Program-made: the position numbers and the translations under genes | The notes under the pieces: model-generated | Database searches by the model: none | What the model was told of the DNA's origin: nothing | What the model saw: only the letters and a program-made list of their open reading frames with translations | Shown: positions 25,934 through 52,359 of the stretch, in pieces | Layout: every line of letters begins with the position of its first letter | How positions within the stretch are numbered: position 1 is the first letter of the stretch | From: Minisyncoccota bacterium | Lineage (GTDB): Bacteria; Patescibacteriota; Minisyncoccia; Phycocordibacterales; XYD1-FULL-46-19 | DNA length: 64,000 nt | Assembly (NCBI GenBank): GCA_041663165.1 | Contig: JBAZRF010000005.1 | Location: 502 to 64,501, forward strand | Direction of reading: 5' to 3'

Positions 25934-26005
25934 GGCCCCATCGTCTAATGGTTAGGACATCACCCTTTCACGGTGGTAATCCGGGTTCGACTCCCGGTGG
26001 GGTCA
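25934..26005 (+). tRNA. tRNA-Glu (anticodon TTC).
   Basis: 'GGCCCCATCGTCTAATGGTTAGGACATCACCCTTTCACGGTGGTAATCCGGGTTCGACTCCCGGTGGGGTCA' closely resembles bacterial tRNA-Glu(UUC). Confidence 0.8.
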
Positions 26006-26027
26006 CAAAATTCATACAATTTTAATG

Positions 26028-26060
26028 TTTATCCAGTGCTTATCCACAGGGTTATCCTTG
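26028..26060. promoter_or_regulatory. Array of three DnaA-box-like 9-mers at about 11-bp spacing (TTTATCCAG, TTATCCACA [a perfect consensus match], TTATCCTTG), directly upstream of a DnaA-like gene.
   Basis: 'tttatccagtgcttatccacagggttatccttgg' was read directly. TTATCCACA at 26040-26048 equals the E. coli DnaA-box consensus. Confidence 0.55.
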
Positions 26061-26169
26061 GTTTGGGGCTTTGATTTGACCACCATTGTGACAAAATGTA
26101 AGAGGAGAAGACCGGTGTGCGGTCTTCCTGTTCGTTGAAAGACGACAGCGTAAGCGAAACAAATATGAG

Positions 26170-27819
26170 GTGTTGATCATGGAGACCGATGCTAAGACGG
26201 TTGGTGGCGCCGATGCCACTATCGGTCTGGCTCCGGTCCAGGTCGATCATCTCGCGATTGTTCGAAGTGAGTTCAGCCGGAAAATGCACGAGCGGGTCAG
26301 AACCAATCTTGGCGATCAATCGTATGATCTCTGGATTGTCAGCGGGGGAGTAACGTTCAGTTTTTACGAGGATCAACTCTCAGAAAGACTGGCTGGAGTC
26401 GTCTATACGGCGAGTTCCTTTGCTTCTGGCTGGCTCGGTGACCCCAAAAAGGTTTATCTAGCCGCTATAACCACTGCGTTCAGAGAGCAAGAAATCTTCC
26501 ACTGGAAGTGCGTGGAGGATGGGGCACTCTGTGAAGTGGCCAAGAAAGAAGTTCTGCCGGTAAGACAGTGTTTACCGAATCTTGAGGCCGAGAAGCCCGA
26601 GCCGGTAGTAAGTAACAAGAAGGTGCCGAAGTTCTGCCCTGGCAGGCCACCTGTTATCGGAGTTAGTTTCGAAGACTTTGTCCCCGAAACCTCGGCTAAC
26701 AAAATGGCGCTGGAGGCAGCCCAGGAGCTTACCAAGAGCCGAAAAGCAGCTAGGTTTACCAGCGCGATTTTTCACGGACCTAGCGAGTCCGGAAAGAAAC
26801 ACCTGGTTCTCTCGACTCTTCGGGCGATGTTGGAGGCTTATCCAAGACTGGATGTCTTCTACTTGGATGGAGACGGGTTCGGTACCCTGTTCCCGAGTTT
26901 CTTCTGGACAGGAAAGGGTGGCCAAACTCAAGCCAACGACGCGGATCTCAAGATCTTCAAGGACCGTCTCTACGCCGCCCAAGTTCTCGTTATCCCCGAC
27001 CTTGACCTTGTTGGCCTTAGGCATGACGGGAGCAAGAGACAAATGGCTCGGGCCATAAATCTGGTTCGCCAGAATGGAGGCCGAGTCCTGATCTCTCTGC
27101 TCCAGCCGCTGCCGGAAAGTGAGGCTGAGGGTATCGACCTGTTTGGACCAGAGCTCTACCGGGTGATAAAAGAGATAAGAAATTTCCGAATGGAAAGAAT
27201 TTCTCGGGAATCTTATCCCCTAGTTGCCCAAGCGTTTCTGGCTAAGCAGTTCATCTCGGCTAAAACACCGGGAGAGAGGGCAATTGTCGATTGGATAGTG
27301 AGGAGGACAAAAAGCCTCACTGTGCTAAAGAATCGACTTGAAACCCTTGTTGAAGAGCATAACAGGAGGGCGACGGATGGCCGCCGTGTCACCCTGCCGG
27401 AGGTGCAAGAACTGTTCAAGTTCCCGCCAAACGCCGACGATCTCATTGCCCTAGTACTGGAGGTCGGGAAACTTCAGCGGAAGGTCCGTCGTGGCGAGGT
27501 CGAATATAAGCGAGTTTTAGATATCGCTTGCTACCTTGCTTCTGAAGTTGTCGGTCTCGACCGGGAGAAGGTTGCTCAGTGGTTCTATCCGGACACCATC
27601 TGGGCAAGTTGCGATGTCAGCGGTGGCCTAATGCGTATCGAGAAGCTTCTGGAGACCTCAGAGGCCCGCTTTCCTCTCGGCATTTTGGCAAGAGAACTCT
27701 TGCGCCGGTTCTCCGTTCCTGAAGGGAAAAGAGAATTCTGGGCCAGCAGGCTAAAGGAGTGGACTCTCTCTGAGTCGGGCAAGAGCAAGGGTCGTCGTCG
27801 CTGTCGAGACAAGTTTTAG
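26170..27819 (+). CDS. Divergent DnaA-like AAA+ protein (DnaA domain III and IV homolog with a non-canonical Walker A, GKK, and an unrelated N-terminal domain of about 170 aa), located in a high-GC island.
   Basis: 'SFEDFVPETSANKMALEAAQEL...FHGPSESGKKHLVLS' parallels DnaA 'TFDNFVxGxSNxLAxAAA...LFLYGGxGLGKTHLL'. 'VLVIPDLDLV' is Walker B. 'KRQMARAINLVRQNGGRVLISLLQPLPE' parallels DnaA 'KERTQEEFFHTFNAL...QIVLTSDRPP'. The C-terminal 'KRVLDIACYLASEVVGLDREKVAQWF...SGGLMRIEKLLE' parallels the DnaA domain IV HTH. Confidence 0.55.
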   Translation: MLIMETDAKTVGGADATIGLAPVQVDHLAIVRSEFSRKMHERVRTNLGDQSYDLWIVSGGVTFSFYEDQLSERLAGVVYTASSFASGWLGDPKKVYLAAITTAFREQEIFHWKCVEDGALCEVAKKEVLPVRQCLPNLEAEKPEPVVSNKKVPKFCPGRPPVIGVSFEDFVPETSANKMALEAAQELTKSRKAARFTSAIFHGPSESGKKHLVLSTLRAMLEAYPRLDVFYLDGDGFGTLFPSFFWTGKGGQTQANDADLKIFKDRLYAAQVLVIPDLDLVGLRHDGSKRQMARAINLVRQNGGRVLISLLQPLPESEAEGIDLFGPELYRVIKEIRNFRMERISRESYPLVAQAFLAKQFISAKTPGERAIVDWIVRRTKSLTVLKNRLETLVEEHNRRATDGRRVTLPEVQELFKFPPNADDLIALVLEVGKLQRKVRRGEVEYKRVLDIACYLASEVVGLDREKVAQWFYPDTIWASCDVSGGLMRIEKLLETSEARFPLGILARELLRRFSVPEGKREFWASRLKEWTLSESGKSKGRRRCRDKF

Positions 27820-27958
27820 TCAGGGCCCCCGGAGTACACTGTCCGCGGGCCCTTTCGCATTTTTATAATTTTTAGAAATAAAAGTTTCCCCAAACCAAAA
27901 GCCCCTTGTCGGGGCTTTTGGGCCTACTGCTTACCACTAATCAACGTGCCTTTAGCAA

Positions 27959-28900
27959 TTACATGGCCGGCGTGGTAAACGAGTAGGTCGTGGAGGTAGC
28001 TGTTCCTCCTCCGGCGTTGGTCGAGGTCACGACATAATAATAAGTCGTGTTGGGGATTAGACCGGATAAGGTTCCCAGATGGAAGAAGGCCGGCACCACG
28101 TCACTGGCCGCTGGAGTTCCGGCCGTGCTAACCGGTGTTGTGGTTGAGAGCCACAATTTCCCATCAGCTAACTGGTCGGTAACGAGAATCACTATCGCGC
28201 TGGTACTAGACACGTTGAAAGCGCTAGTGAAGAGGATGGCTGGTGGCGGGGAAATTACCGGCGGGGTACTTGTTCCGGTAGCCGTAGTGGTAAACGATAC
28301 AACCGAGGATGTTGCCGTTTTGTCGGCACTGCTTGCTCGAACGGTCAGATAATAGGTGGTACTAGGGATGAGACCGGTCAAGGCCAAACTATGAGTAGTT
28401 GTTGTGGCGGTCGGGTCAATTATCACCGTCCCTCCGTTCGTGGCCAACTGAGTGGTGGTGCCAAACATCACGTTGCCGGTTGTTGGTAAATTGGTTAACC
28501 AACTGATACTGGCCGAGGTCGAGGCGACGGAAGAGAAATTGATACTAGAGATTGACAAGATCGCCTGACCACCGCCATGTTCAGCTTCATTTTCGTGTTC
28601 ATCTTCTCTCTCTCCGTATCCGGTTTGTTCGTTTTGATTCTTGCCGTGATCGTCATCGTCTTCTTTCTTGCTACCAGAGTTGTCACTATTCTGATTTTGC
28701 TGACCATGATCATCTTGGGTTGCCGGTGTGGCCACTACTTGATGTTGATCTTGTCTTCTTTCGGCTTGATCTCTTCCAGACGGCTCTCGGCCACCGCCAT
28801 CCTCGGCGAGAGCCAAAGCGCCAGGCACGGCGAGCACCAACGCTAAAGCGATCGAGAAAGGGACGAGTTTACTATGCCATTTAATCAATAATCTTTTCAT
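27959..28900 (-). CDS. Secreted protein with an acidic/His-rich linker and two FN3/PKD-like beta-sandwich repeats (high GC).
   Basis: A signal peptide is at 'MKRLLIKWHSKLVPFSIALALVLAVPGALA'. The 'GLIP(S/N)TTYY' repeat occurs twice, which is typical of FN3-like domains. Regional GC is about 57%. Confidence 0.4.
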   Translation of the reverse strand: MKRLLIKWHSKLVPFSIALALVLAVPGALALAEDGGGREPSGRDQAERRQDQHQVVATPATQDDHGQQNQNSDNSGSKKEDDDDHGKNQNEQTGYGEREDEHENEAEHGGGQAILSISSINFSSVASTSASISWLTNLPTTGNVMFGTTTQLATNGGTVIIDPTATTTTHSLALTGLIPSTTYYLTVRASSADKTATSSVVSFTTTATGTSTPPVISPPPAILFTSAFNVSSTSAIVILVTDQLADGKLWLSTTTPVSTAGTPAASDVVPAFFHLGTLSGLIPNTTYYYVVTSTNAGGGTATSTTYSFTTPAM

Positions 28901-29061
28901 AAGATTTTTTAAGTTAAGTTAATCGACTAAACATCAATGGCGACTAATTTACTCAACTAGCGACGACCAGAGACTCATTTGGCGGGGATTTATTGGCTTT
29001 TCCGCCAACGGCCCGCTAGGTAGGTTGTAGGTTTATAACTACGATTTGGTCCCAAATTCTG

Positions 29062-29883
29062 GTGCAAAGCCCGGATGTTTGTTATAGTTTTCTTATGATA
29101 ATTTGGATTGCGCTAGCCACTTTTTGCTCAACACTTTTGGGCGGACTTTTTGCTTTGCGGTTTCGGGATAAGTTGCACTTGATTCTCGGCTTCTCGGCCG
29201 GGGCGGTGATTGGCGTCGCTTTTTTTGATTTATTGCCCGAAGCGATTAATTTGGGGCAAGGACTTTATGATGTTTCTTTTGTTACTGGCATTGTCGCACT
29301 CGGTTTTATTGTCTACATGACTCTTGACCGTTTGATTTTATTTCATCCGCCGGCCGACGAGGATTGTCTCGACTGTCATAACGAGCACCACCAATTAGGA
29401 AGTTGGCCCCAAGGCCTTTGGCGGGGTAAACTAGGCGCTGGCACCTTGGCCGTGCACAGTTTTCTCGACGGCTTGGCAATTGGCCTGGCCTTCCAAGTTT
29501 CATCGGCCGTCGGCGTGATTGTGGCGGTCGCGGTTTTAACTCATGATTTTTCTGACGGCATTAACACGGTTGGTTTGATTTTAAAAACCGGGCACTCTGC
29601 GGTGCCCGGCCAGACCGATCCAGACAAGAAACGCCAAGCGTTTAGCTGGCTTTTGATAGATGCCATTGCGCCGGTGCTGGGTGTTTTGGCCACTTTATTT
29701 TTTACTCTCTCCGAAACTTCCCTCGGCCTCATCCTGGCCGTTTTTTGCGGCTTCTTCCTCTATATCGGCGCCTCCGAATTGCTCCCTGAGAGTCATCACG
29801 GCCACTCCACGCGCTTGACTACCCTAATGACGATTCTCGGCGCCTTGGTGCTATATCTGGCGGTTAAACTGGCCGGGGTCTAA
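29062..29883 (+). CDS. zupT: ZIP-family zinc/metal transporter (ZupT-like).
   Basis: 'HNEHHQ', 'HSFLDGLAIGLAF', 'HDFSDG' and 'HHGHS' are ZIP signature His/Asp-rich TM motifs. Confidence 0.75.
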   Translation: MQSPDVCYSFLMIIWIALATFCSTLLGGLFALRFRDKLHLILGFSAGAVIGVAFFDLLPEAINLGQGLYDVSFVTGIVALGFIVYMTLDRLILFHPPADEDCLDCHNEHHQLGSWPQGLWRGKLGAGTLAVHSFLDGLAIGLAFQVSSAVGVIVAVAVLTHDFSDGINTVGLILKTGHSAVPGQTDPDKKRQAFSWLLIDAIAPVLGVLATLFFTLSETSLGLILAVFCGFFLYIGASELLPESHHGHSTRLTTLMTILGALVLYLAVKLAGV

Positions 29884-29884
29884 A

Positions 29885-30832
29885 TTATTTCCTCTGCAAA
29901 AAGTTATAGATATCTTCAACGGCGTTGGCGGCATCGCCGGCGGCGATATTGTTTTGACGATAGAGAACATCGGTGCAGTCGCCGGCTGACCAGATTCCTT
30001 CTTGCGAGGTGGTCTGGCGAAGGTGGTCAACAACGATTTCACCTCTTTCATTTAATTTAACGATGTCTTTAAAAATAGCGGTATTGGCGACAAAACCAAT
30101 CTCAACAAAAATACCGGTCACGGGCAATTCAATCGGCTCACCGGTGGCTAAACCTTGTTCATCTTTGTTTTTGTAAACTAAACTTTTGACAAATCCGCCA
30201 GCTGGCGGAGCGCCTTTAATCTCAACCAGCTCAACATTTTTAAATGCTTTGAATTTTGGGTTTTGCAAAAGTTTGTCAATCGTGATTTGTTCGGCACGAA
30301 AGGCGGGCATGGTTTCAAGTAGGGTGACACTATTGCAATAAGCAAGGAGTTGGCCAGCCGAATTGAAACCGGCATTACCGCCGCCAATCACCGCCACATC
30401 TTGACCAGAGAAGATTGGGCCATCGCAGGAGGCGCAGTAAGTAACGCCTTTTTGTTCGAAAACGTCAGCGCCCGGCACGGTTAATTTTCGTCTGACAGCG
30501 CCGGCGGTAATAAGGACAGTTTTAGCTTTGTATTCGTCTTTGTCAGTTTTTACCACAAAGCCGTTGCTTTCCTTGGTCAGCCCGGTTACTTGCTCGGGAA
30601 CCTTAATTGTTAAATCGGGTCCTTCATAAGAACGCAAATGTAGCTCAAGTTTTTTGGCCAGGTCAATGCCGGAGATATTTTGCTCGCCGATCCAATTTTG
30701 AATTTCGGGTGAGACCGAAGATTGGCCGGCTAATTCTTGAGCGATAAGTAAAGTTTTTAATTTTTTTCTAGCAGCATAAACGCCCGCCGATACGCCGGCT
30801 GGTCCGCCACCAATAATGATTAGGTCGTACAT
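29885..30832 (-). CDS. trxB: Thioredoxin-disulfide reductase; start trimmed to 'MYDLIIIGGGPAG'.
   Basis: The FAD motif 'IIIGGGPAG', the redox-active 'CASCDG', and 'GQDVAVIGGGNAG' (NADPH site) are present. Confidence 0.8.
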   Translation of the reverse strand: MYDLIIIGGGPAGVSAGVYAARKKLKTLLIAQELAGQSSVSPEIQNWIGEQNISGIDLAKKLELHLRSYEGPDLTIKVPEQVTGLTKESNGFVVKTDKDEYKAKTVLITAGAVRRKLTVPGADVFEQKGVTYCASCDGPIFSGQDVAVIGGGNAGFNSAGQLLAYCNSVTLLETMPAFRAEQITIDKLLQNPKFKAFKNVELVEIKGAPPAGGFVKSLVYKNKDEQGLATGEPIELPVTGIFVEIGFVANTAIFKDIVKLNERGEIVVDHLRQTTSQEGIWSAGDCTDVLYRQNNIAAGDAANAVEDIYNFLQRK

Positions 30833-39304: not shown

Positions 39305-39961
39305 ATGTCTCAAAGAAAAGTCGCTTTTGCTATCGGAGAATATTACCACGTTTTCAATCGCGGGATTGAAGGTCGGAGTATTTTTGCCAATGATGAAGAC
39401 CTCAATCATTTTATTCAAAGTGTCGAAAAATTTAACGACAACAATGTTGTAGGAGGTTTATACATGAGCTCGTTCGATAAATACAAGAAAAAAGGGAAGA
39501 GATTAGTAAATATCATTTGTTATGCTTTCAACCCAAACCATTATCATTTTTTAATGACTCCCTTGGTCGAGAAAGGTATAGAAAATTTTATGCAACGGCT
39601 CGGTACCGGTCATACAATGTTTTTTAATCACCAGCACAAGAGGAAGGGGAGATTGTTTCAAGGTGTTTTTAAATCAGCCCATATTGATTCGAATGAGTAT
39701 TTAATGCATTTGAGTGTTTACATTAATTTAAACGACAAAGTTCACCAACTTAGAGGCGAGGCCTCTAAGTTGGCAAAAACTAGCTGGAATAGCTATGCCT
39801 CGAAAAAGAGAGACATTTTGCTTAGGGATATAAGCATAATTACCAATCAATTCAAAAATCCCAAAGAGTATAAAAAATTCGCCGAAGAAATTTTGCCAGA
39901 TATTATTGAAAGAAAACAATTACTGAAAGAGCTTGAAGCTATCATTATCGAGGAAGAATAG
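39305..39961 (+). CDS. REP-associated tyrosine transposase (RAYT; IS200-like Y1/HuH transposase family), carrying an internal in-frame REP copy.
   Basis: The N-terminal 'YYHVFNRGIEGRSIFANDEDLNHFIQ' matches RAYT 'YHVxxRGNxRQxIFxDDxDRxxFL'. The HuH motif is in 'ICYAFNPNHYHFLM'. 'GRLFQGVFKSAHIDSNEYLMHLSVYINLN' parallels 'GHLWQGRYKSxLVxxExYLLxLSRYIxLNP' and contains the catalytic Tyr. 'SWNSYAS' parallels RAYT 'WSSY'. Confidence 0.65.
   Translation: MSQRKVAFAIGEYYHVFNRGIEGRSIFANDEDLNHFIQSVEKFNDNNVVGGLYMSSFDKYKKKGKRLVNIICYAFNPNHYHFLMTPLVEKGIENFMQRLGTGHTMFFNHQHKRKGRLFQGVFKSAHIDSNEYLMHLSVYINLNDKVHQLRGEASKLAKTSWNSYASKKRDILLRDISIITNQFKNPKEYKKFAEEILPDIIERKQLLKELEAIIIEEE
39745..39773. repeat. REP-like palindrome (ccaacttagaggc-gag-gcctctaagttgg) inside the RAYT ORF; it encodes 'HQLRGEASKLA'.
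   Basis: A 13-bp perfect stem whose core is identical to the other copies. Confidence 0.7.
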
Positions 39962-44180: not shown

Positions 44181-44332
44181 AAAAGACTTTAAATTTGAGA
44201 TAAATTATAGCTATTGACAAATAGGCTATTGCTTGTTATATTTAAACACGGAAGTTGAAAAAAGCGTAAATAAGATAAAACCCAGATATTCGTGAACCAT
44301 AACGCCTACGGGCCACGGGAGAATTAAGCGTC

Positions 44333-44881
44333 ATGAGTAGTCAGATTAGTAGTGCAACGGCGAAGAAGGGTTTGTTCTGGATGGCGATCGTTTTCGCTCT
44401 GGCTCTGGGGGTGTGGGCATGGTACTCCTTTGTCTACCGGCCCGATCACCAGAATCCTCAAGTGGCGGTTGCTCAAGTGGCCACGACCGAGATAGTTAAG
44501 ACCGATCTCGCCAGCCTGAACATTGGCACGGAGGACTTTGGCTGGCTGCCGGTGGTTTGGATGGAAGGAGTAGATAGTGCTAGCGGCCTGTCCGCGATCA
44601 TCATCTCTCTAGATCCCTCTAATTCCAAAGACACCGCCACCTGGCGACCGGCGATTATGAGGACTGGCGGATTCAACCCGGACAAGCGATCATATTCGCA
44701 GATCGCCGACAACGCGTCGGTCGGCGGTTTCAGTACTGTTGCCCACATCTACTCGAAGATCACACATCTCGAAAGAGCGCCCTTCTCGGATGTCTTCTTC
44801 GTCGGTGGCGGAGAGTATCCGGGCAACGTAGCCTACGCGAATTATCTAGCCGAACAGGCGGCCAACAAGAAGAAGCCATAA
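44333..44881 (+). CDS. Hypothetical membrane-anchored protein (high GC).
   Basis: A 182-aa ORF with an N-terminal TM anchor, 'LFWMAIVFALALGVWAWYSFV'. Local GC is about 57%. Confidence 0.3.
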   Translation: MSSQISSATAKKGLFWMAIVFALALGVWAWYSFVYRPDHQNPQVAVAQVATTEIVKTDLASLNIGTEDFGWLPVVWMEGVDSASGLSAIIISLDPSNSKDTATWRPAIMRTGGFNPDKRSYSQIADNASVGGFSTVAHIYSKITHLERAPFSDVFFVGGGEYPGNVAYANYLAEQAANKKKP

Positions 44882-44998: not shown

Positions 44999-45529
44999 AT
45001 GGCTTTTGCGGATCCGCTCACTAATTTACAACAAATTAACTTAACCCTGGGGATGACAGTGGTAGATTTTGGCGCTGGTTCGGGCGCCTACACCTTACCG
45101 GCAGCGCGCTTGGTGGCGCCGGCTGGTAAAGTTTACGCGGTTGAAATTCAAAAAGATTTACTCGAGACAATCAAAAAGGCCGCCGAAGCTGAGCATTTGG
45201 GCGGAAACGTTAATTTGATTTGGGGAGATGTTGAGCAGCCTGGCGGTGTTGGGTTGGGAGACAATCTGGCCGATGTCATTATCATTTCTAACCTTTTGTT
45301 TCAGGCTAAATCAATGTACACGCTGGTCTTAGAGGCTAAACGGATCTTAAAACCCAATGGGAAGATTATGGTTATTGACTGGACGGGATCTTTTGGCGGA
45401 CTAGGACCTCAACCTAAAGATATTGTTTCGGCCGAAGAAGTAAAAAAGACTTTTGGCAGCGCTGGGTTAGTTTTCACCTCAGAATTTTCAGCCGGGGAAA
45501 ATCATTATGGGCTAATTTTTATGAAATAA
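44999..45529 (+). CDS. Class I SAM-dependent methyltransferase.
   Basis: 'VVDFGAGSGAYTLPAARLV' is motif I and 'VIIISNLL' is post-I-like. Confidence 0.6.
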   Translation: MAFADPLTNLQQINLTLGMTVVDFGAGSGAYTLPAARLVAPAGKVYAVEIQKDLLETIKKAAEAEHLGGNVNLIWGDVEQPGGVGLGDNLADVIIISNLLFQAKSMYTLVLEAKRILKPNGKIMVIDWTGSFGGLGPQPKDIVSAEEVKKTFGSAGLVFTSEFSAGENHYGLIFMK

Positions 45530-45533
45530 ATTA

Positions 45534-46844
45534 ATGAGTGGTAAAAGTTTGTTCCAAACCATTCTCCTTGTTCTCTTGGGTGCCGCCCTGGTGGTTGCCG
45601 TTTTAATTTTTGCCGGTGTTTTGCCGGGCTTTCGACAGAAAAAAGTTGGTCAGGCTGGTGAAGTTGTGGTCTGGGGCAGTTTTTCTGACAATTCTTTCAT
45701 CCAAATGATGACGACCGACCTTCCTCAAGGGCACGAAAAGGAGTTTTCGGTTAGATATTTTGATAAGGGCGCTGATCTTGAGTCGTCTTTAATCAATGCG
45801 CTTGCCTCCGGCCAAGGTCCCGATGTCATCATTGCTCCCCATGAGCTAATTCTTAAACAGCGCGACAAATTTGCCCTGATTCCTTTTACCTCGGTTCCGC
45901 TTCGCTCTTATCAAGACACTTTTGTTGACGAGGGTGATCTCTTTGTTGTTAAAGATGGGTTTATGGCGCTACCATTGTCAATTGATCCCCTTCTTCTTTA
46001 TTACAACAAAGACGTCTACAATAATGTTAATTTGCTCAAAGCGCCGACCAATTGGGAGGAGTTTATTAAAATTCAACCCATCCTGACCAAAGTGGGCGAA
46101 CTCCATCGATTAGAACAGAGCGCCTTTGCCCTGGGTACTTTTGGCAATAATAATAATGCCAAAGATATTTTATCCTTACTTATTCTCCAGGCCGGGGGCT
46201 CGCCGGCCGTTTCTAACGATGGCCAGATTTCCGTAACCCTCAATAACGACTTTGGTTTTTCTATTAAACCGGCTCAAGCCGCCCTTTCTTTTTTCCTGCA
46301 ATTTGCCGATCCTGTTAAGAGCACCTATTGTTGGAATCGTTCTTTGCCTGAGGCCCGGGATAGTTTCTTGGGTGAAAGTTTGGTCAATTATTTTGGCTTT
46401 GGAAGCGAGGCTTCTTATTTGCGAGAAAAAAATCCCCATCTTAACTTAAACTTAAGTATCGTGCCCCAAATGGAGGGCAAAAATCGCCTGACCTTTGGCC
46501 GTCTGTACGGGGTGGCCGTTCTTAAAACTTCGACCAAATTAAGTGCCACTTGGCCAATGATCTTTGCTTTGACCGGACAAGAACATTCCCAAAAGGCTGC
46601 CGATATTCTTAATCTCGCTCCCTCTCGGCGAGCACTTCTGGTTCCTGACCCGGCTAAGCCGGACCAAAAAGTTATTTTTGATTCCGCCCTCATTAGCCGT
46701 GGTTGGTATGATTTTGCGCCGGCCGAAATCAAGAACCTTTTTCAAACGATGAATGATAACGCTGCTACCGGTCGACTTTCGCCGTCCGAAGCGGTAGAGC
46801 AGGCAGCGGGAGAAATTAGCAAATTAATTAATCCTTCTCAATAA
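45534..46844 (+). CDS. Membrane-anchored extracellular solute-binding protein (family 1, sugar-type ABC SBP-like). It is orphaned, with no permease or ATPase adjacent.
   Basis: An N-terminal TM anchor is followed by about 400 aa with SBP_bac_1-like features ('LSIDPLLLYYNKDVY', 'WEEF'). The assignment is tentative. Confidence 0.45.
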   Translation: MSGKSLFQTILLVLLGAALVVAVLIFAGVLPGFRQKKVGQAGEVVVWGSFSDNSFIQMMTTDLPQGHEKEFSVRYFDKGADLESSLINALASGQGPDVIIAPHELILKQRDKFALIPFTSVPLRSYQDTFVDEGDLFVVKDGFMALPLSIDPLLLYYNKDVYNNVNLLKAPTNWEEFIKIQPILTKVGELHRLEQSAFALGTFGNNNNAKDILSLLILQAGGSPAVSNDGQISVTLNNDFGFSIKPAQAALSFFLQFADPVKSTYCWNRSLPEARDSFLGESLVNYFGFGSEASYLREKNPHLNLNLSIVPQMEGKNRLTFGRLYGVAVLKTSTKLSATWPMIFALTGQEHSQKAADILNLAPSRRALLVPDPAKPDQKVIFDSALISRGWYDFAPAEIKNLFQTMNDNAATGRLSPSEAVEQAAGEISKLINPSQ

Positions 46845-46845
46845 A

Positions 46846-47268
46846 ATGACCGCTAAGAAAGTCAATTATCGTTTCGCCCTCGCTTTCCTGCTGGTTTTGG
46901 TGTTTTTTAATTTCTTGCCACTTTTACTCTTGGCGGCTGACGCTCCGCTTGTTACTACAGTCGGCAGTGATGGTCCGGGCGATTACACCTGGAAGGAGCT
47001 CGTTCAATTATTTAGAAATGTTACCGACTTTATTTTCTTAAGATTGATGATTCCTCTTGCGGTGATCGCCATTGTTTACGCCGGTATTCGAATTTTGTTG
47101 GGGAAGAGCAAGCCAGAAGATTTAATTAAAGAAAAGGGGACGCTTCGCAATGTGGCGATCGGGATCTTTATGGCATTGGGCGCCTATGCTATAGTTAAGA
47201 CAATCTTTAGCTTGCTAGCTGACGATAGTACCAGCGTGATTAGGGGAGTGATGGATCAAGTTTTTTAA
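46846..47268 (+). CDS. Pilin-like small membrane protein (TrbC/VirB2-like two-TM), paralog 1 of 6.
   Basis: A signal peptide plus TM, a charged loop 'GKSKPEDLIKEKG', and a second TM; this architecture is shared by the next five genes. Confidence 0.4.
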   Translation: MTAKKVNYRFALAFLLVLVFFNFLPLLLLAADAPLVTTVGSDGPGDYTWKELVQLFRNVTDFIFLRLMIPLAVIAIVYAGIRILLGKSKPEDLIKEKGTLRNVAIGIFMALGAYAIVKTIFSLLADDSTSVIRGVMDQVF

Positions 47269-47277
47269 TTACCGAAG

Positions 47278-47682
47278 ATGAGAACAAAAAAATATCAACT
47301 TTTGGCTTTGATTTTATTTTTGACCGCTGTGGCCATGCCCAGCTTGGTTTGGGCGGTGGATCCGGTCGGCACCAAAATTTTTGTAAATCCTCTTAAAGCC
47401 GATAACATTACTGAATTGTTAACCGCTGTTCTCGATGTCGTTGTCCAGGTTGGCCTTGTTATTGTTGTCTTTTTTATTATTTACGCTGGTTTCCAATTTG
47501 TAACCGCCCAAGGAAATACGGAAAAAATTAAAGATGCGCGCAAAGCGCTGGTCTACACTCTTATTGGCTCAGCCATTGTTATTGGTTCTTATGCTATTGC
47601 CTCGGCGCTTAAAAGCACGGTCAATCAGCTCACCAACGGTGTTGTCGTTCAATTACAGGAAATTACTAAGTTTAAAACCTAA
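47278..47682 (+). CDS. Pilin-like small membrane protein, paralog 2.
   Basis: A signal peptide, TM1, the loop 'AQGNTEKIKDARK', and TM2. Confidence 0.4.
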   Translation: MRTKKYQLLALILFLTAVAMPSLVWAVDPVGTKIFVNPLKADNITELLTAVLDVVVQVGLVIVVFFIIYAGFQFVTAQGNTEKIKDARKALVYTLIGSAIVIGSYAIASALKSTVNQLTNGVVVQLQEITKFKT

Positions 47683-47686
47683 AAAT

Positions 47687-47992
47687 ATGGCTGCTGCGGG
47701 GAACCTTCAAGGCATTATCCAAGTTATTTTGAAGTCAATTATCGAACCGCTTATCCCGATTTTAGTGGCTCTCGCCATCATTCTTTTTGCTTGGGGATTA
47801 TTTAATTATCTAAAATCAGGGATGGGTGACACTGATGATATCCGAGGAGCCAAAAGCCTAATGTTTTGGGGGATGATTATTATTTTCGTGATGTTTTCGG
47901 TTTGGGGTTTGGTGCTTATCCTTCAAGATGTGTTTTTTAACGGTGGCACGGTGCCAATGGTCGCCCCCAAAGTTATCAGGTATGGTCTGTAA
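47687..47992 (+). CDS. Pilin-like small membrane protein, paralog 3; start trimmed to 'MAAAGNLQG'.
   Basis: TM1 'PILVALAIILFAWGLFNYL', the loop 'KSGMGDTDDIRGAKS', and TM2. Confidence 0.4.
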   Translation: MAAAGNLQGIIQVILKSIIEPLIPILVALAIILFAWGLFNYLKSGMGDTDDIRGAKSLMFWGMIIIFVMFSVWGLVLILQDVFFNGGTVPMVAPKVIRYGL

Positions 47993-48014
47993 TAATTTTT
48001 AATTATTCATTTTT

Positions 48015-48359
48015 ATGTCATTACGTTCTAAAATTGTGGTCGGTTTTGCTTCGCTCTCGCCGGTGATCGCTTCGGCCGGTTATCTCGATGATGTTGCCAC
48101 CACCTTTAAGAAGGTGATTGCCACCGTCTTGCCCGCCTTCATCGGCCTGGCCATCATCGGCTTCGCTTACGGCTTGTTCGTTTATCTTAAGGGTGGGGCT
48201 GAAGACAAGGAGAAGGGTAAGACTTTGATCTTTTGGGGCGGCTTATCAATTGTTGTTTTAATCTCTCTCTACGGTATTGCCGGGTTATTGCAAACTCTCA
48301 CCGGGGCCACGGGGACAATTATTAATGTTCCCTCGGTGGTTACCGGTTTGCATCAATGA
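48015..48359 (+). CDS. Pilin-like small membrane protein, paralog 4.
   Basis: 'LPAFIGLAIIGFAYGLFVYLKGGAEDKEKGKTL' is identical to the corresponding segment of paralog 5. Confidence 0.45.
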   Translation: MSLRSKIVVGFASLSPVIASAGYLDDVATTFKKVIATVLPAFIGLAIIGFAYGLFVYLKGGAEDKEKGKTLIFWGGLSIVVLISLYGIAGLLQTLTGATGTIINVPSVVTGLHQ

Positions 48360-48474
48360 TTCGTTTATCCACCTTTCGGTTTTACTAACCGGCTTTTAAA
48401 CGATATAATTAAGGAGGTCATTATTATTAAATAGTCGATTAATTATTAACTTTAATTATTAAGAAATATTTATT

Positions 48475-48834
48475 ATGTCGCTTCGTGTAAAAATTGGGGC
48501 TGGGTTAATGGCTCTTTTGCCAATGACTTCTTTCGCTCTCGGGTTTAATAATGCTTACTTTACGAACATGTCGGTAGCGTTTAAAACCATAATCGGGAAC
48601 CTTTTGCCCGCCTTCATCGGCCTGGCCATCATCGGCTTCGCTTACGGCTTGTTCGTTTATCTTAAGGGTGGGGCTGAAGACAAGGAGAAGGGTAAGACTT
48701 TGATGATTTGGGGCGGTCTAGCCGTTGTCATCTTGATTTCTATTTACGGCATTGCCGGGTTATTGCAAGATCTGACGGGGGCAACCGATACTAATATTAC
48801 TCCGCCGACGACTATCAAGGGCCTAAATATATAG
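48475..48834 (+). CDS. Pilin-like small membrane protein, paralog 5.
   Basis: A nucleotide block of about 100 bp (48604-48704) is identical to 48129-48229. Confidence 0.45.
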   Translation: MSLRVKIGAGLMALLPMTSFALGFNNAYFTNMSVAFKTIIGNLLPAFIGLAIIGFAYGLFVYLKGGAEDKEKGKTLMIWGGLAVVILISIYGIAGLLQDLTGATDTNITPPTTIKGLNI

Positions 48835-48851
48835 TGGGTTTCTAGATAAAA

Positions 48852-49100
48852 ATGAAATTGCTCGACAATATTAAGGCCTTTGTGGTTGATCCGGTCATTC
48901 TTTTGCTCTTTGGTTTGGCGCTTGTCATTTTCCTTTACGGTTTGGTTATGTTTTTATGGCAAGGCGATACGGTTAAGAATTCGACCGAGGGACGCGATAA
49001 AATTATCTGGGGTCTGGTCGGGATGGCAGTTATGGCTTCGGTTTACGGCTTCTTGGAGGTCATTTCTAAAACCATTGATCAACTGATGACAGGAGTTTAA
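48852..49100 (+). CDS. Pilin-like small membrane protein, paralog 6 (no cleavable signal peptide).
   Basis: TM1 'VILLLFGLALVIFLYGLVMFL', the loop 'WQGDTVKNSTEGRDK', and TM2. Confidence 0.35.
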   Translation: MKLLDNIKAFVVDPVILLLFGLALVIFLYGLVMFLWQGDTVKNSTEGRDKIIWGLVGMAVMASVYGFLEVISKTIDQLMTGV

Positions 49101-49180
49101 TATTTTAAAGAGTAAAGAAAAGTGCCACACCTCCTTGCGGGGGTGTGGCACTTGGTTTTTGTCAAACGCTTCTCCTTTCT

Positions 49181-49759
49181 CTACTTTGTTTTCCACCGCC
49201 AGGTCACATATAGCGGTGGTTCACCTTTGTTCACCTTGAAGTAAACGGGTTCTCCTGGGTCCAGCGTCACGCTGTCCCCGTCGCCAACCGAATGCCACTC
49301 TCCACCGCCACTCTTTATCAAGAAGCGGCGGCCGTGTTCCGCACCCGGAGCTAGGCGGTGGTCGCCTTCAATCGCTCCGTTTTCCCAGGCGATCGGTACT
49401 ACTTCGTCGGTGAGACGAAGGGTTCGCCACTCGCCCCAGCTAGCCTCTTTCGCCGCCGGGCAAGTCTTAGTGCTGCTACACACAGACGCGATATAGCAGA
49501 GCCCATATACGAAGATTACCGCCAACGCCAGAATCATGAACATCCCGTCTCGTGGCAGTGGGGCCTTGGCCTTAGGCTTCTTCTCGGCCGTGGCCGCCGC
49601 TTCCTTGGTGTCGGTCTTCTTTTCTGCCCCTTTCTCTTTGGCCTTCGACACCTTTTCCTTGTTTGTCCTTCTGGCTTGGCATAGCGCCAGAACGACGAAG
49701 ATGGTTGACGGTATCGTTACCACGGAAAGGATTGCTCCTATTGTCCACCACATTGTCAT
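49181..49759 (-). CDS. NfeD-like membrane protein (C-terminal beta-rich/OB-like domain); putative partner of the upstream SPFH protein. High GC.
   Basis: An N-terminal TM, a Lys/Ala-rich linker and a second TM are followed by the C-terminal 'GEWHSVGDGDSVTLDPGEPVYFKVNKGEPPLYV'. The protein lies immediately downstream of an SPFH gene. Confidence 0.35.
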   Translation of the reverse strand: MTMWWTIGAILSVVTIPSTIFVVLALCQARRTNKEKVSKAKEKGAEKKTDTKEAAATAEKKPKAKAPLPRDGMFMILALAVIFVYGLCYIASVCSSTKTCPAAKEASWGEWRTLRLTDEVVPIAWENGAIEGDHRLAPGAEHGRRFLIKSGGGEWHSVGDGDSVTLDPGEPVYFKVNKGEPPLYVTWRWKTK

Positions 49760-49768
49760 ACTCCTTTC

Positions 49769-50839
49769 TTACTTCTTATTGCTAGGGTCAATGTTGAGGA
49801 GAATGCCGCCCGTGTTCTCTGCAACCATATTGATTGTCGCCGGCGGCTGTTTTTCGAGCATATCAAGCACGTTCTGTGACCTGTAGATGGCCTCTGCCGC
49901 TCGCCACGAAACTACCCGTCCCTTGCGAACGACGGTAACACCGTCGGCCGCAAAAACTGGCTTGGCAGCTTCATCAATGATCGCCAAGATCGCGAGGGCA
50001 TGTCCTCTTCCCTTGGCTTGATGGCCCAGGGCTTCTTTCTCGGCACTAAGGACACCTTCGCGGTCTTTCTTCACACTCTCCGGCAGAGCAATCCGTTTGA
50101 GGGTGATCCCGCTCTCCGGACACAGGCGAACGCCGATGTTTGCCAATGCCTGCAAGAAGGTTCGATCCCATAATACTTTTTGCGAGATCTCGCCTGTCTT
50201 GAGCGCCGCGTCATCAACGTTGTAACCCTGAATGATTCGCCGGACCGCTTCTATTGCCAGACTCTTTATCCGGGCCGGTGTATCCTCAACCACGTAGACG
50301 AACAGGTAGCAGGGGTCATCGTGGCCCCGGCTTGGTGCCCCAGTTATTTTGTCGGGGGTCGGGGTGCCGGTGACGGTGGTGGGGATTTCGATCTCTGCCC
50401 TATCGCTGTCGATGACTTGGGCGACGATTTTGAATTCCGGCGTTCCACTACTGCCCCCAAGAAAGACGACTTCGCCTCCCATGTCAGCAGCCGTGACCTC
50501 GATAATGACTTGTTCGAAGGTCCCGTCTTCTCCGCCGTGTGGGGCAAACTTGTCGATCAGTCCCGGTAGACAGAGAATGTGCCAGCCGCCCCTTAGTGTC
50601 AGGTGATAGGTGCCGAGCCGCTCAACGACCCGGAAGTCCTTCTCGGTTACGAATGTCAGCCCTACTCCCGCGTAGATGGCAAACCAGGATAAGAGCCCGG
50701 TCAAACCAAATACGACAGACAACTTCCCAGCTCCTAAGAGCCAGGTCAGGACAATGGTCCCTAAGCCACAAACCGCTCCGCCACCAAGGATCACCACCCA
50801 GGCCAACAACTGCATCTGCCATTTCTTCATCGCGTCCAT
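49769..50839 (-). CDS. SPFH/band-7 (stomatin/prohibitin/HflKC-like) domain membrane protein (high GC).
   Basis: N-terminal TM segments are followed by 'FRVVERLGTYHLTLRGGWHILCLPGLID', an SPFH-domain start, and a long helical tail 'SVKKDREGVLSAEKEALGHQAKGRG'. GC is about 58%. Confidence 0.55.
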   Translation of the reverse strand: MDAMKKWQMQLLAWVVILGGGAVCGLGTIVLTWLLGAGKLSVVFGLTGLLSWFAIYAGVGLTFVTEKDFRVVERLGTYHLTLRGGWHILCLPGLIDKFAPHGGEDGTFEQVIIEVTAADMGGEVVFLGGSSGTPEFKIVAQVIDSDRAEIEIPTTVTGTPTPDKITGAPSRGHDDPCYLFVYVVEDTPARIKSLAIEAVRRIIQGYNVDDAALKTGEISQKVLWDRTFLQALANIGVRLCPESGITLKRIALPESVKKDREGVLSAEKEALGHQAKGRGHALAILAIIDEAAKPVFAADGVTVVRKGRVVSWRAAEAIYRSQNVLDMLEKQPPATINMVAENTGGILLNIDPSNKK

Positions 50840-51041
50840 CCTTCCTAGTTCAGAGTCACACCCTTCTTGAGGGGGACATTAGCTTAACGAAATTGACAAA
50901 AACCTATACAGTCACGAAACGAGGGAACATCCCTGTTTCGATTGTTCAGTGTATCTGCTATTGATTATACACTATATCATACAAGAAGTCAAGGGGTAAA
51001 AGTCCTTGTCTGGCAAGGCTTTTTGAGCGCTTTAATTCTGT

Positions 51042-51123
51042 GCCGAGGAGAGGACTTGAACCTCCATGGATTGCTCCACTAGCTCCTAAGGCTAGCGCGT
51101 CTGCCAATTTCGCCACCTCGGCA
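51042..51123 (-). tRNA. tRNA-Leu (anticodon TAG), with a long variable arm.
   Basis: The reverse complement 'GCCGAGGTGGCGAAATTGGCAGACGCGCTAGCCTTAGGAGCTAGTGGAGCAATCCATGGAGGTTCAAGTCCTCTCCTCGGCA' has anticodon stem ctagc/gctag and loop CTTAGGA. Confidence 0.75.
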
Positions 51124-51181
51124 AGTTTGATTTAAGGACACACGCGCTCGGACCTAAAAAATTTTTAAGTCGCTCGCTTGT

Positions 51182-51254
51182 CCGCCCAGTAGGATTCGGA
51201 CCTACGACCGTTCGCTTAAGAGGCGACTGCTCTACCAACTGAGCTATGGGCGGA
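51182..51254 (-). tRNA. tRNA-Lys (anticodon CTT).
   Basis: The reverse complement 'CCGCCCATAGCTCAGTTGGTAGAGCAGTCGCCTCTTAAGCGAACGGTCGTAGGTCCGAATCCTACTGGGCGGA' has acceptor stem ccgccca/tgggcgg and anticodon loop CTCTTAA. The T-loop is non-canonical (TCCGAAT). Confidence 0.65.
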
Positions 51255-51297
51255 ACTTTTTAATTTTAACAACTAACAAACAACAACTCAACGGTGT

Positions 51298-51379
51298 GCT
51301 TGGGGCGGGAATCGAACCCGCATGAGCATGGCTCACAACATTTTAAGTGTTGCGCGTATACCAATTCCGCCACCCAAGC
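51298..51379 (-). tRNA. tRNA-Leu (anticodon TAA), with a long variable arm.
   Basis: The reverse complement 'GCTTGGGTGGCGGAATTGGTATACGCGCAACACTTAAAATGTTGTGAGCCATGCTCATGCGGGTTCGATTCCCGCCCCAAGCA' has anticodon stem caaca/tgttg and loop CTTAAAA. Confidence 0.75.
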
Positions 51380-51380
51380 C

Positions 51381-51854
51381 TTATTTTTTACGATTCCGAC
51401 CTCTATGTGTTGGTTTTAGACTGTAACAATTGGGGCAGAGAACTCTTAAATTAGATAGTCGGTTGTCGTGCCTGTTTCCATTTATATGGTCTAACTCTAA
51501 TGGGAGTCGACCGTCCTCTGATCTTTTTGCCCAGCCACACTCTTCACATTGAGGCTCCTTTATTTTGGCAGAAAACAATCTATTTTTCAACTTAAAACTT
51601 TGGAAAGTGCTATTTGGAACAAGAATCTCGTTGAGAGGTATTGAAGTTTTGCCCGTCCCTTTTAAACCCTTATTCCAACCCTTTCCTGTAAAATGTTTGG
51701 TATTAAGAGACAGTTCCTTTATATATTTTTTTAGTTGGTCATAATTCCCGCCAGCTTCTTTTAGGTCTAATTCATGTAAAACCTGTCTATAGCTTGTGCA
51801 TTTTTTTACGGCGATTCTCAATTTCTCAATCGTCCAAGTTCGTTTCTTCGGCAT
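51381..51854 (-). CDS. Free-standing HNH endonuclease (homing-endonuclease-like), directly abutting tRNA-Leu(TAA).
   Basis: 'CEECGW...LELDHINGNRHDNRLSNLRVLCPNCYSLK' is an HNH motif with flanking Cys pairs. Confidence 0.6.
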   Translation of the reverse strand: MPKKRTWTIEKLRIAVKKCTSYRQVLHELDLKEAGGNYDQLKKYIKELSLNTKHFTGKGWNKGLKGTGKTSIPLNEILVPNSTFQSFKLKNRLFSAKIKEPQCEECGWAKRSEDGRLPLELDHINGNRHDNRLSNLRVLCPNCYSLKPTHRGRNRKK

Positions 51855-51964
51855 TACCTATATTATATCGTAATGGTAGAGGTAAGGAAAGTGGATAATT
51901 TTGCGTTTACCTAATAGTTTTGGGTATTTTAAAAATACAGTTTTTTTGCTAGACTTTAACTATC

Positions 51965-52034
51965 GGCCTGGTCGCCAAGTGGTAAGGCAAGGGTCTGCAA
52001 AACCCTTATACGGGAGTTCAATTCTCCCCCAGGC
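51965..52034 (+). tRNA. tRNA-Cys (anticodon GCA).
   Basis: 'GGCCTGGTCGCCAAGTGGTAAGGCAAGGGTCTGCAAAACCCTTATACGGGAGTTCAATTCTCCCCCAGGCCT' has anticodon stem agggt/accct, loop CTGCAAA, and T-arm gggag-ttcaatt-ctccc. Confidence 0.75.
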
Positions 52035-52035
52035 C

Positions 52036-52359
52036 TCAAATTTTTTCTAGAATCCCCTCGATTTTTTGGCGGTTTTTTTCGCCGGCATCAATTTCGAATT
52101 CGACGAAAGGGATGGTTTTCATTGGCAAGGCATCGGCAATAACCGAACGGAGTTCACTGCGCTTGCGCTTGGCAAATTCAAGCGCGGCGGTCTCGAAATT
52201 TTCGGGAAAGACGGTTATAAAAGCTGTGACATTTTTCAGGTCACGGCCAACCTCGCAATGGGTTACCGTTACGACCGATTGGGTATTAGCCTCTTTGTTT
52301 AGAAAGGCCGAAATTATTTCTTGCAATCTCCCTTCCACTTTTTCTTGTCTGAAAGTCAT
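52036..52359 (-). CDS. rbfA: Ribosome-binding factor A.
   Basis: The protein is 107 aa, with 'RLQEIISAFLNKE...VTVTHCEVGRDLKNVTAFITV', a KH-like RbfA pattern. It lies immediately downstream of infB. Confidence 0.7.
   Translation of the reverse strand: MTFRQEKVEGRLQEIISAFLNKEANTQSVVTVTHCEVGRDLKNVTAFITVFPENFETAALEFAKRKRSELRSVIADALPMKTIPFVEFEIDAGEKNRQKIEGILEKI

Follow-up and report, generated by a model that had tools for sequence, protein, structure and literature searches.

Why does a housekeeping stretch of chromosome carry six small membrane-protein genes in a row, directly behind a gene for a solute-binding protein (SBP), and what might their products build? The question arises at positions 46846-49100 of a 64,000-nucleotide (nt) stretch, called the window here, from a Minisyncoccota bacterium (GenBank assembly GCA_041663165.1, contig JBAZRF010000005.1). 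An earlier note on this DNA had read the six genes, g1 to g6, as pilin-like subunits of the TrbC/VirB2 type. The six prove to be a genuine tandem array that encodes membrane proteins of the conjugative-pilin-like (VirB2/TrbC) kind in an ultra-small bacterium of the Patescibacteria. The paralogues are old, individually maintained and under purifying selection, and the SBP-like gene is the conserved first gene of the pilin module. On balance we favor a role as specialized subunits of a pilus or conduit dependent on a type IV secretion system (T4SS), with the machinery encoded elsewhere.

Six VirB2/TrbC-like genes in tandem

All six open reading frames (ORFs) described in the earlier note were found; they are consecutive, tightly packed, on the + strand and 82-140 amino acids (aa) long. 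We classed g1 and g2, which have a signal peptide, an N-terminal extension and a canonical Pfam match, as A-type. The shorter g3-g6 were classed as B-type.

46846-47268, + strand: g1, 140 aa, A-type VirB2/TrbC-like pilin with a long signal peptide, an N-terminal extension of ~25 aa, two helices and the loop GKSKPEDLIKEKGTLR
47278-47682, + strand: g2, 134 aa, A-type pilin with a signal peptide ending in VWA before VD, an NPL motif and helices 44-76 and 81-130
47687-47992, + strand: g3, 101 aa, B-type pilin-like hairpin without signal peptide; loop KSGMGDTDDIRGAKS
48015-48359, + strand: g4, 114 aa, B-type pilin-like protein with a signal peptide ending in ASA before GY; loop GGAEDKEKGK
48475-48834, + strand: g5, 119 aa, B-type pilin-like protein with a signal peptide ending in SFA before LG; loop GGAEDKEKGK
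48852-49100, + strand: g6, 82 aa, B-type minimal hairpin without signal peptide, usually last in the array; loop WQGDTVKNSTEGRDK

The gaps from g1 to g6 are 9, 4, 22, 115 and 17 nt. A longer ORF for g3, which begins at 47534 and has a signal-peptide-looking N-terminus, was rejected. Its ~150-nt overlap with g2 takes in the conserved C-terminal helix of that protein, and the g3 orthologues are 102-107 aa long; the start at 47687 is therefore preferred.

Kyte-Doolittle hydropathy bore out the proposed topology. In 6/6 proteins, two hydrophobic helices flank a short charged loop (3-5 K/R and 2-3 D/E), and the loops quoted in the earlier note for g3 to g6 are all present. AlphaFold2 models of g2 (H44-76/H81-130, pLDDT 79) and g5 (H26-64/H67-101, pLDDT 76) are helical hairpins. 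Signal-peptide-like N-termini with small residues at -1 and -3 are seen on g1, g2, g4 and g5 and on neither g3 nor g6. The class-III signal peptide of type IV pili (G before F/M-x-x-x-E) occurs in none of the six N-termini. We also set aside the Pam pilins of the candidate phyla radiation (CPR). These are built from Ig-like donor-strand-exchange domains and are unrelated (the 'novel CPR pilus' preprint, bioRxiv 10.64898/2026.03.03.709456), whereas the models here are all-helical.

The TrbC/VirB2-type assignment stood at Pfam thresholds for the two A-type proteins. The g1 protein matches PF04956 (TrbC/VirB2) at 30.7 bits (cut-off 27.9) and PF18895 (T4SS_pilin) at 28.5 bits (cut-off 26.6), and g2 matches PF18895 at 32.2 bits. 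Proteins g3-g6 stay under the PF18895 cut-off, with E-values of 9.5e-4 (g3), 5.6e-3 (g4), 1.7e-4 (g5) and 7.2e-4 (g6). Among their relatives, 29/29 members of the g3-g6 family alignment match this model (best E 4.6e-7), and the g3-g6 orthologues in the related loci L007-L009 carry stronger precomputed matches. Profile-profile comparison with hhalign linked all classes (c1-c2 97.8%, c2-c6 93.8%, c3-c45 99.5%, c3-c6 98.2%). The B classes c3/c45/c6 are linked at 97.9% or more and the B-to-A links lie at 72-94%. These matches and links support membership of g3-g6 in the family too, and the six are treated here as divergent tandem paralogues, as the note had proposed.

The B-type proteins are a large family; their profile matches 8,535 cluster representatives in a library of 1.84 billion proteins. 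Genes of the g3-g6 type fall under Pfam thresholds, and public records call them 'hypothetical' or give them spurious names. Many of the best profile matches are 230-370 aa long with 2-3 tandem hairpin domains per polypeptide, and reflect either genuine fusion of array genes or read-through in gene calling. The model NF045849 (Mbov_0395 pilin-like protein of an integrative and conjugative element, ICE) gave sub-threshold scores with g2-g5 (17-29 bits, cut-off 40).

Fixed paralogue classes behind an SBP-like gene

Nine loci found through pilin homologues (L001-L009) have the same layout, namely gyrA, a methyltransferase gene, an SBP-like gene, 5-6 pilin-like genes, a convergent gene pair (small membrane protein and SPFH-like protein), rbfA and infB. 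L010 shares this architecture. The 'Saccharibacteria' titles on many of the relatives' records were treated with caution; the loci are close to Paceibacterota records, and GyrA of the L003 contig, for example, is 91% identical to that of the window. At least 10 other genomes keep both the order and the size of the array genes, and order, sizes and sequences are conserved in >70 genomes overall. The codon-position mismatch is 0.40-0.69 at third positions versus 0.09-0.27 at second positions. From this pattern and the conserved order and size, the genes are not chance ORFs.

In a tree of 40 pilins, the sequences of g1, g2, g3 and g6 from different genomes group by gene, with one clade for each. 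Three of these classes, g1, g2 and g6, are also present in the distant loci L007-L009, whose g2 is only 40-50% identical, and the g6 orthologue clade extends to L007 and L009. Lineage-specific duplications lie in the middle of the array (g4/g5 here, p2-p4 in L008 and p3/p5 in L009). Identity between classes averages ~25% (range 15-58%). The g3 protein is 38% identical to g4 and g5, and g4 and g5 are 62% identical to each other. The cores of these two genes hold a 220-nt direct repeat of 84% identity (48105-48324 versus 48580-48799) with the corresponding 34 aa identical, which indicates a recent duplication or gene conversion. This is the sole younger duplicate pair of the array, g5 being the younger partner of g4.

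Mean aa identity between orthologues over four genomes is 59-75% for the pilins, compared with 92% for GyrA, 84% for IF2, 78% for the methyltransferase, 71% for RbfA and 70% for the SBP-like protein. The most conserved pilin is g6 (75%), and neither RbfA nor the SBP-like protein evolves more slowly than the pilins. Synonymous sites are saturated; where the ratio of nonsynonymous to synonymous substitution rates (dN/dS) could be computed, it was 0.06-0.30. The paralogues are old, position-specific and under purifying selection, and a set of non-redundant structural classes, with major and minor subunits, describes them better than antigenic variation does.

The g1 proteins vary in one detail of the N-terminal extracellular extension. 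The orthologues in L001, L003, L005 and L007 have a cysteine pair there (V-x-C-G...D-C), and L009 has a shorter C-x-x-x-x-C. The g1 of the window has lost both (VTTVGSDGPGDYTW).

Upstream of the array stand a methyltransferase gene and an orphan SBP gene, as the note had stated.

44999..45529, + strand: class-I S-adenosylmethionine methyltransferase, 176 aa, Pfam Methyltransf_31/11/25; stop 4 nt before the SBP gene
45534..46844, + strand: SBP-like protein, 436 aa, with an N-terminal transmembrane (TM) helix; SBP_bac_1 at 36.4 bits (cut-off 26); stop 1 nt before g1

The SBP-like protein is weakly similar to MalE/trehalose-maltose-binding proteins in the Protein Data Bank (PDB). Neither here nor in the related annotated loci does a permease or ATPase partner (BPD_transp, ABC_tran) accompany the gene. 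L005 contains one exporter-type ATP-binding cassette (ABC) gene, which is not conserved elsewhere.

Homologues of the SBP-like protein are widespread in Patescibacteria. A scan of the GTDB species representatives returned at least 574 relatives, and 80 loci were analyzed with hidden Markov models (HMMs) made from the A and B classes. The scan was built on a 10-sequence alignment, a 26-sequence alignment being too diverse. A pilin-like gene comes directly after the SBP gene in 69/69 loci with at least 1.5 kb downstream (median gap 18 nt), and 67/69 have at least two. The arrays contain four genes (26 loci), five (26), six (8), seven (2) or eight (1), and A-type genes precede B-type genes in 69/69. 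Of 358 pilin-like ORFs, only ~10 are located elsewhere in the flanks of ±10 kb. GyrA is upstream in 64/80 loci.

The adjacency is also seen with very distant SBP homologues. A Kaiserbacteria homologue (33% identity) is followed by four T4SS_pilin genes, and a Kuenenbacteria homologue (28%; L011) by two pilin genes and then LysM/M23 and Band_7. Locus L012 (GCA_020049755.1, 9385-14904; SBP homologue 27%) has nine to ten consecutive T4SS_pilin genes of 106-317 aa, the largest array here. The idea of a specially conserved TM anchor on the SBP-like protein was dropped. Conservation was 0.65 versus 0.58 in the close set and 0.37 versus 0.47 in the wide one. Lipoprotein-type (lipobox) signals take the place of the TM anchor in distant homologues.

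An operon of an SBP gene plus an ordered array, remote from virB4, is apparently undescribed. In the literature searched, no paper was found that connects VirB2-like pilins of Patescibacteria with an SBP, and the words solute, SBP, Band and SPFH are absent from the text of PMC12102498.

Candidate operon signals and neighboring genes

The SBP-like gene and g1-g6 probably form one operon closed by a strong terminator. The signs are gaps of 1-22 nt except the one of 115 nt, a promoter-like site and the terminator.

44214..44242, + strand: promoter-like site TTGACA-17-TATATT with TG, downstream of gyrA, 11/12 in a consensus scan; candidate operon promoter
48381..48409, + strand: promoter-like site TTTACT-17-TATAAT in the 115-nt g4-g5 gap, 10/12 in the scan; possible internal promoter
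49120..49153, + strand: intrinsic-terminator-like hairpin with a 15-bp stem (9 G-C pairs) and a T-run, 20 nt past the g6 stop, between convergent genes
49181-49759, - strand: membrane protein, 192 aa, convergent on the array
49769-50839, - strand: SPFH/Band_7-like protein, 356 aa, Band_7 28.5 bits, convergent on the array

The methyltransferase has no specific NCBIfam assignment. Its gene is syntenic in closer Paceibacteria and absent from the distant loci L011 and L012; on account of that absence it was rejected as a core part of the module, which it probably is not. The convergent pair has a GC content of 0.56 against 0.452 for the window. It is conserved in position and hypervariable in sequence, since identity is 26-28% between genomes whose GyrA is 92% identical. 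A tie between the pair and the array is uncertain. A dn2-like gene follows the array in 26/48 GTDB loci, and Band_7 adjoins the array in the Kuenenbacteria locus too. Between gyrA and the methyltransferase gene, a 182-aa ORF (44333-44881, + strand, GC 0.55, no family match) occurs in this genome only; relatives have a short gap.

The window is housekeeping chromosome and encodes GyrA, LeuRS, HisRS, LepA, IF2, RbfA, ClpB, FtsZ, FtsA, MurJ, RNR and S1, with signal peptidase I, RNase P RNA and 13 tRNAs. Our pilin HMMs detected no further pilin-like ORF in the 64-kb window. The g2, g5 and SBP-like proteins each have a 100% identical counterpart in an assembly labeled 'Candidatus Paceibacterota bacterium', whereas g4 had no exact match on record. 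A GC-rich block (0.50-0.53) at 26000-30000, beside tRNA-Ser and tRNA-Glu, encodes a 549-aa AAA+ protein with weak likeness to DnaA, an fn3/purple-acid-phosphatase-N protein and a ZIP transporter, and may be an acquired island. This DnaA-like ORF (26170-27819) was considered as a marker of a nearby origin or T4SS and is not DnaA (29.8 bits, cut-off 343.9). An HNH endonuclease gene (51381-51854, GC 0.378) lies within a tRNA cluster at 51040-52037 (Leu, Lys, Leu on the - strand, Cys on the + strand), and at about that position the relatives L005 and L006 carry a LAGLIDADG gene. An IS200-like Y1 transposase match at 39305-39961 (+ strand) scores 21.7 bits, under the cut-off of 23; L003 and L005 have a Y1_Tnp gene near the array. 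At 13-2502 (+ strand), where the window starts, lies the gene of an 829-aa protein with LVIVD repeats and a Peptidase_S74 (endosialidase chaperone) domain.

Known systems and what the array may build

Tandem VirB2-like arrays in Patescibacteria are already published and this locus is a further instance, as arrays of 2-11 genes and that of Southlakia epibionticum are on record. Patescibacteria carry an MPF-FATA-like T4SS and most of them encode VirB4 (PMC12102498). VirB2-like pilins were reported in 1,948 assemblies, near virB4 in 1,135 and with pilin genes away from virB4 in ~40%, together with 441 VirB2 arrays in 383 assemblies (identity mean 25%, maximum 54%; PMC12102498). As here, those tandem genes were detected through PF04956/PF18895 and have a mean identity of ~25% (Quinonero-Coronel et al. 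2025, PMC12102498). The present array differs in that g4 and g5, at 62% identity, exceed the reported maximum. It also differs from the mapped arrays, which are near virB4 in the sense of within 20 coding sequences (CDS), in having no virB4 within 20 CDS on either side as far as the window reaches. Since B-type genes fall under the Pfam thresholds, arrays like this one may be under-counted or scored as PrgF in that survey.

The closest counterpart is the array of S. epibionticum ML1 (Wang et al. 2023, PMC10633639; PMC12857230). There, too, six consecutive same-strand PF18895 genes (some also PF04956) encode sequence-divergent, structurally alike helical hairpins in a Patescibacterium. The genes (SEML1_0014-0019, 103-185 aa) are all essential. 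They belong to the class Saccharimonadia and lie within a T4SS cluster, next to VirB6-like and near VirB4 genes, with no SBP in front. The array studied here, by contrast, is from the class Paceibacteria and is next to gyrA, with an SBP-like gene immediately upstream and no T4SS gene in the window.

Pfam family membership ties g1 and g2 to VirB2 of the T-pilus, TrbC of RP4 and TraA of F. Other shared traits are a mature size of ~70-110 aa, the long signal peptide, the pair of hydrophobic helices and the short basic loop. Those pilins come from diderms, whereas the host here is monoderm, there is no adjacent virB operon and six paralogues stand in place of one major pilin. Further differences are that g3 and g6 have no signal peptide and that the present proteins show no detectable similarity to solved pilins by sequence or Foldseek. 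A solute-binding-fold protein outside the cytoplasm is tied to a T4SS in pCF10 (PrgZ/TraC, recorded as 'peptide pheromone-binding protein TraC'). ChvE of Agrobacterium is an extracytoplasmic solute-binding protein tied to T4SS-related signaling. Both come from other SBP families and supply regulators or Opp permeases, whereas here an SBP_bac_1 (MalE-like) gene lies beside pilin genes.

With the array acting in a T4SS-dependent pilus or conduit, each product would insert into the cytoplasmic membrane as a helical hairpin, with the charged loop toward the cytoplasm and both ends outside. Insertion of g1, g2, g4 and g5 would follow signal-peptidase cleavage. A VirB4-type ATPase complex, with its genes elsewhere, would draw the hairpins out of the membrane as for VirB2-family pilins, and they would be built into a pilus-like filament or conduit at host-cell contact. 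The A- and B-type classes would hold distinct structural roles. The tethered SBP-like protein would be an indispensable partner and could serve as receptor, adaptor or assembly factor on the external side of the cytoplasmic membrane.

Several results count against this interpretation. No gene for VirB4, VirD4, VirB6 or type IV pilus assembly was found in the window (VirB4 and VirD4 among ORFs of at least 150 aa), which agrees with the earlier note as regards the two ATPases; a PilM_2 match belongs to FtsA. The virB4-free span around the array covers ~40 CDS upstream and ~12 downstream. None of the T4SS genes (VirB4, VirB3, VirB6 and others) is found within ±10 kb in 12 annotated related loci. 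Across the 80 GTDB loci, a Walker A motif occurs in only 1/39 unassigned, non-housekeeping ORFs of at least 450 aa, so virB4 is not nearby. Scores of g3-g6 against PF18895 are 17.2-22.0 bits, below the cut-off of 26.6. Foldseek against solved structures gave generic hairpins (best E 2.6 and 0.26) and no solved conjugative pilin, and the profile of the g2 family returned nothing relevant among PDB sequences. Such uninformative searches are expected of a bare hairpin, and the S. epibionticum pilins likewise gave generic hairpins only, for example the ATP synthase c subunit. Finally, the pilus of S. epibionticum is itself a proposal, and none of these proteins has been seen as a pilus in any Patescibacterium.

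Separation of pilin genes from the ATPase has been recorded before. The Nomurabacteria genome GCA_000990275.1 encodes VirB4 at CDS 545; its VirB2-PrgF-PrgF run, at CDS 786-788, is flagged as not VirB4-associated (PMC12102498 Table S3). Such runs away from VirB4 probably reflect the same array type. Published work places the VirB4 complex near dnaA in Paceibacteria.

A more ambitious form of the proposal holds that the SBP-like gene and the A-then-B array are one conserved device across Paceibacteria and related Patescibacteria, with the SBP working directly with a VirB2-like filament or pore. We put this forward tentatively and consider it rather improbable. The SBP could then serve a T4SS pilus that taps host cells, as its receptor or as an adaptor at its tip, or be part of a T4SS-independent uptake conduit replacing the missing ABC permease.

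The second of these options leads to the best-surviving alternative, in which no T4SS takes part. A pore or scaffold of hairpins and the tethered SBP would together take up or sense a host-derived, sugar-like solute in place of an ABC permease. The invariable adjacency of SBP gene and array, which persists at 27-33% SBP identity, fits this well, as does the lack of a permease, ATPase or VirB4 within ±10 kb; Patescibacteria rely on scavenging from hosts (PMC11665869). Adjacency, however, speaks for a functional link and not for a mechanism. No known transporter is made of VirB2-like hairpins, the best-studied array, that of S. epibionticum, sits within a T4SS cluster without an SBP, and VirB4 is encoded elsewhere in most Patescibacteria (PMC12102498). 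We regard this alternative as doubtful.

The earlier note had called the locus a 'diversifying' surface-filament or adhesin locus. The corresponding model is an antigenically variable adhesin-pilin cassette like the VirB2 paralogue arrays of Bartonella and Anaplasma, with interchangeable variants widening the host range, and it has been proposed for Patescibacteria arrays (PMC12102498). The low identity within the array and the lineage-specific duplication of its middle genes would suit it. It is at odds with the one-to-one orthology of g1, g2, g3 and g6, the persistence of the g1, g2 and g6 classes in loci as distant as L007-L009, the low dN/dS, the fixed A-then-B order and a rate of change no higher than that of RbfA or the SBP-like protein. 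Diversification of this kind is therefore unlikely here.

Alternatively, the B-type proteins could be PrgF-like small parts of a monoderm MPF-FATA system, embedded in the membrane as channel accessories and never leaving it. PrgF of pCF10 (75 aa) and the Mbov_0395 pilin-like ICE protein are small two-TM hairpins of monoderm conjugation systems, and PrgF resembles the B-type proteins in size and topology. The Paceibacteria VirB2-PrgF-PrgF runs recall the A-then-B order (PMC12102498 Table S3), and Gram-positive T4SSs are generally without pili (PMC12102498, PMC10633639). Comparison of pCF10 PrgF with the A- and B-type profiles gave no signal, however (HMM 2-5 bits, hhalign probability 0.2%, shuffled Smith-Waterman z 1.1-2.8), and the B-type proteins match the pilin model PF18895 instead. 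We think this quite unlikely. Unrelated small hydrophobic ORFs or spurious gene calls, which readily give weak HMM matches and would explain the sub-threshold scores of g3-g6, can be dismissed given the conservation in >70 genomes, the codon-position pattern, a dN/dS well under 1 and the thousands of B-type relatives.

In the one Patescibacteria species tested the array is essential, though monoderm T4SSs normally have no pilus. The Paceibacteria loci put three constraints on the role of the Patescibacteria T4SS and its unusual pilin arrays. Old paralogue classes in fixed order, A-type then B-type, make up an array that is no variable cassette; on the chromosome it stands apart from virB4; and a membrane-tethered SBP-like gene invariably precedes it. 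If the SBP-like protein is a working partner of the array, it would provide a concrete handle on what the structure recognizes or transports.

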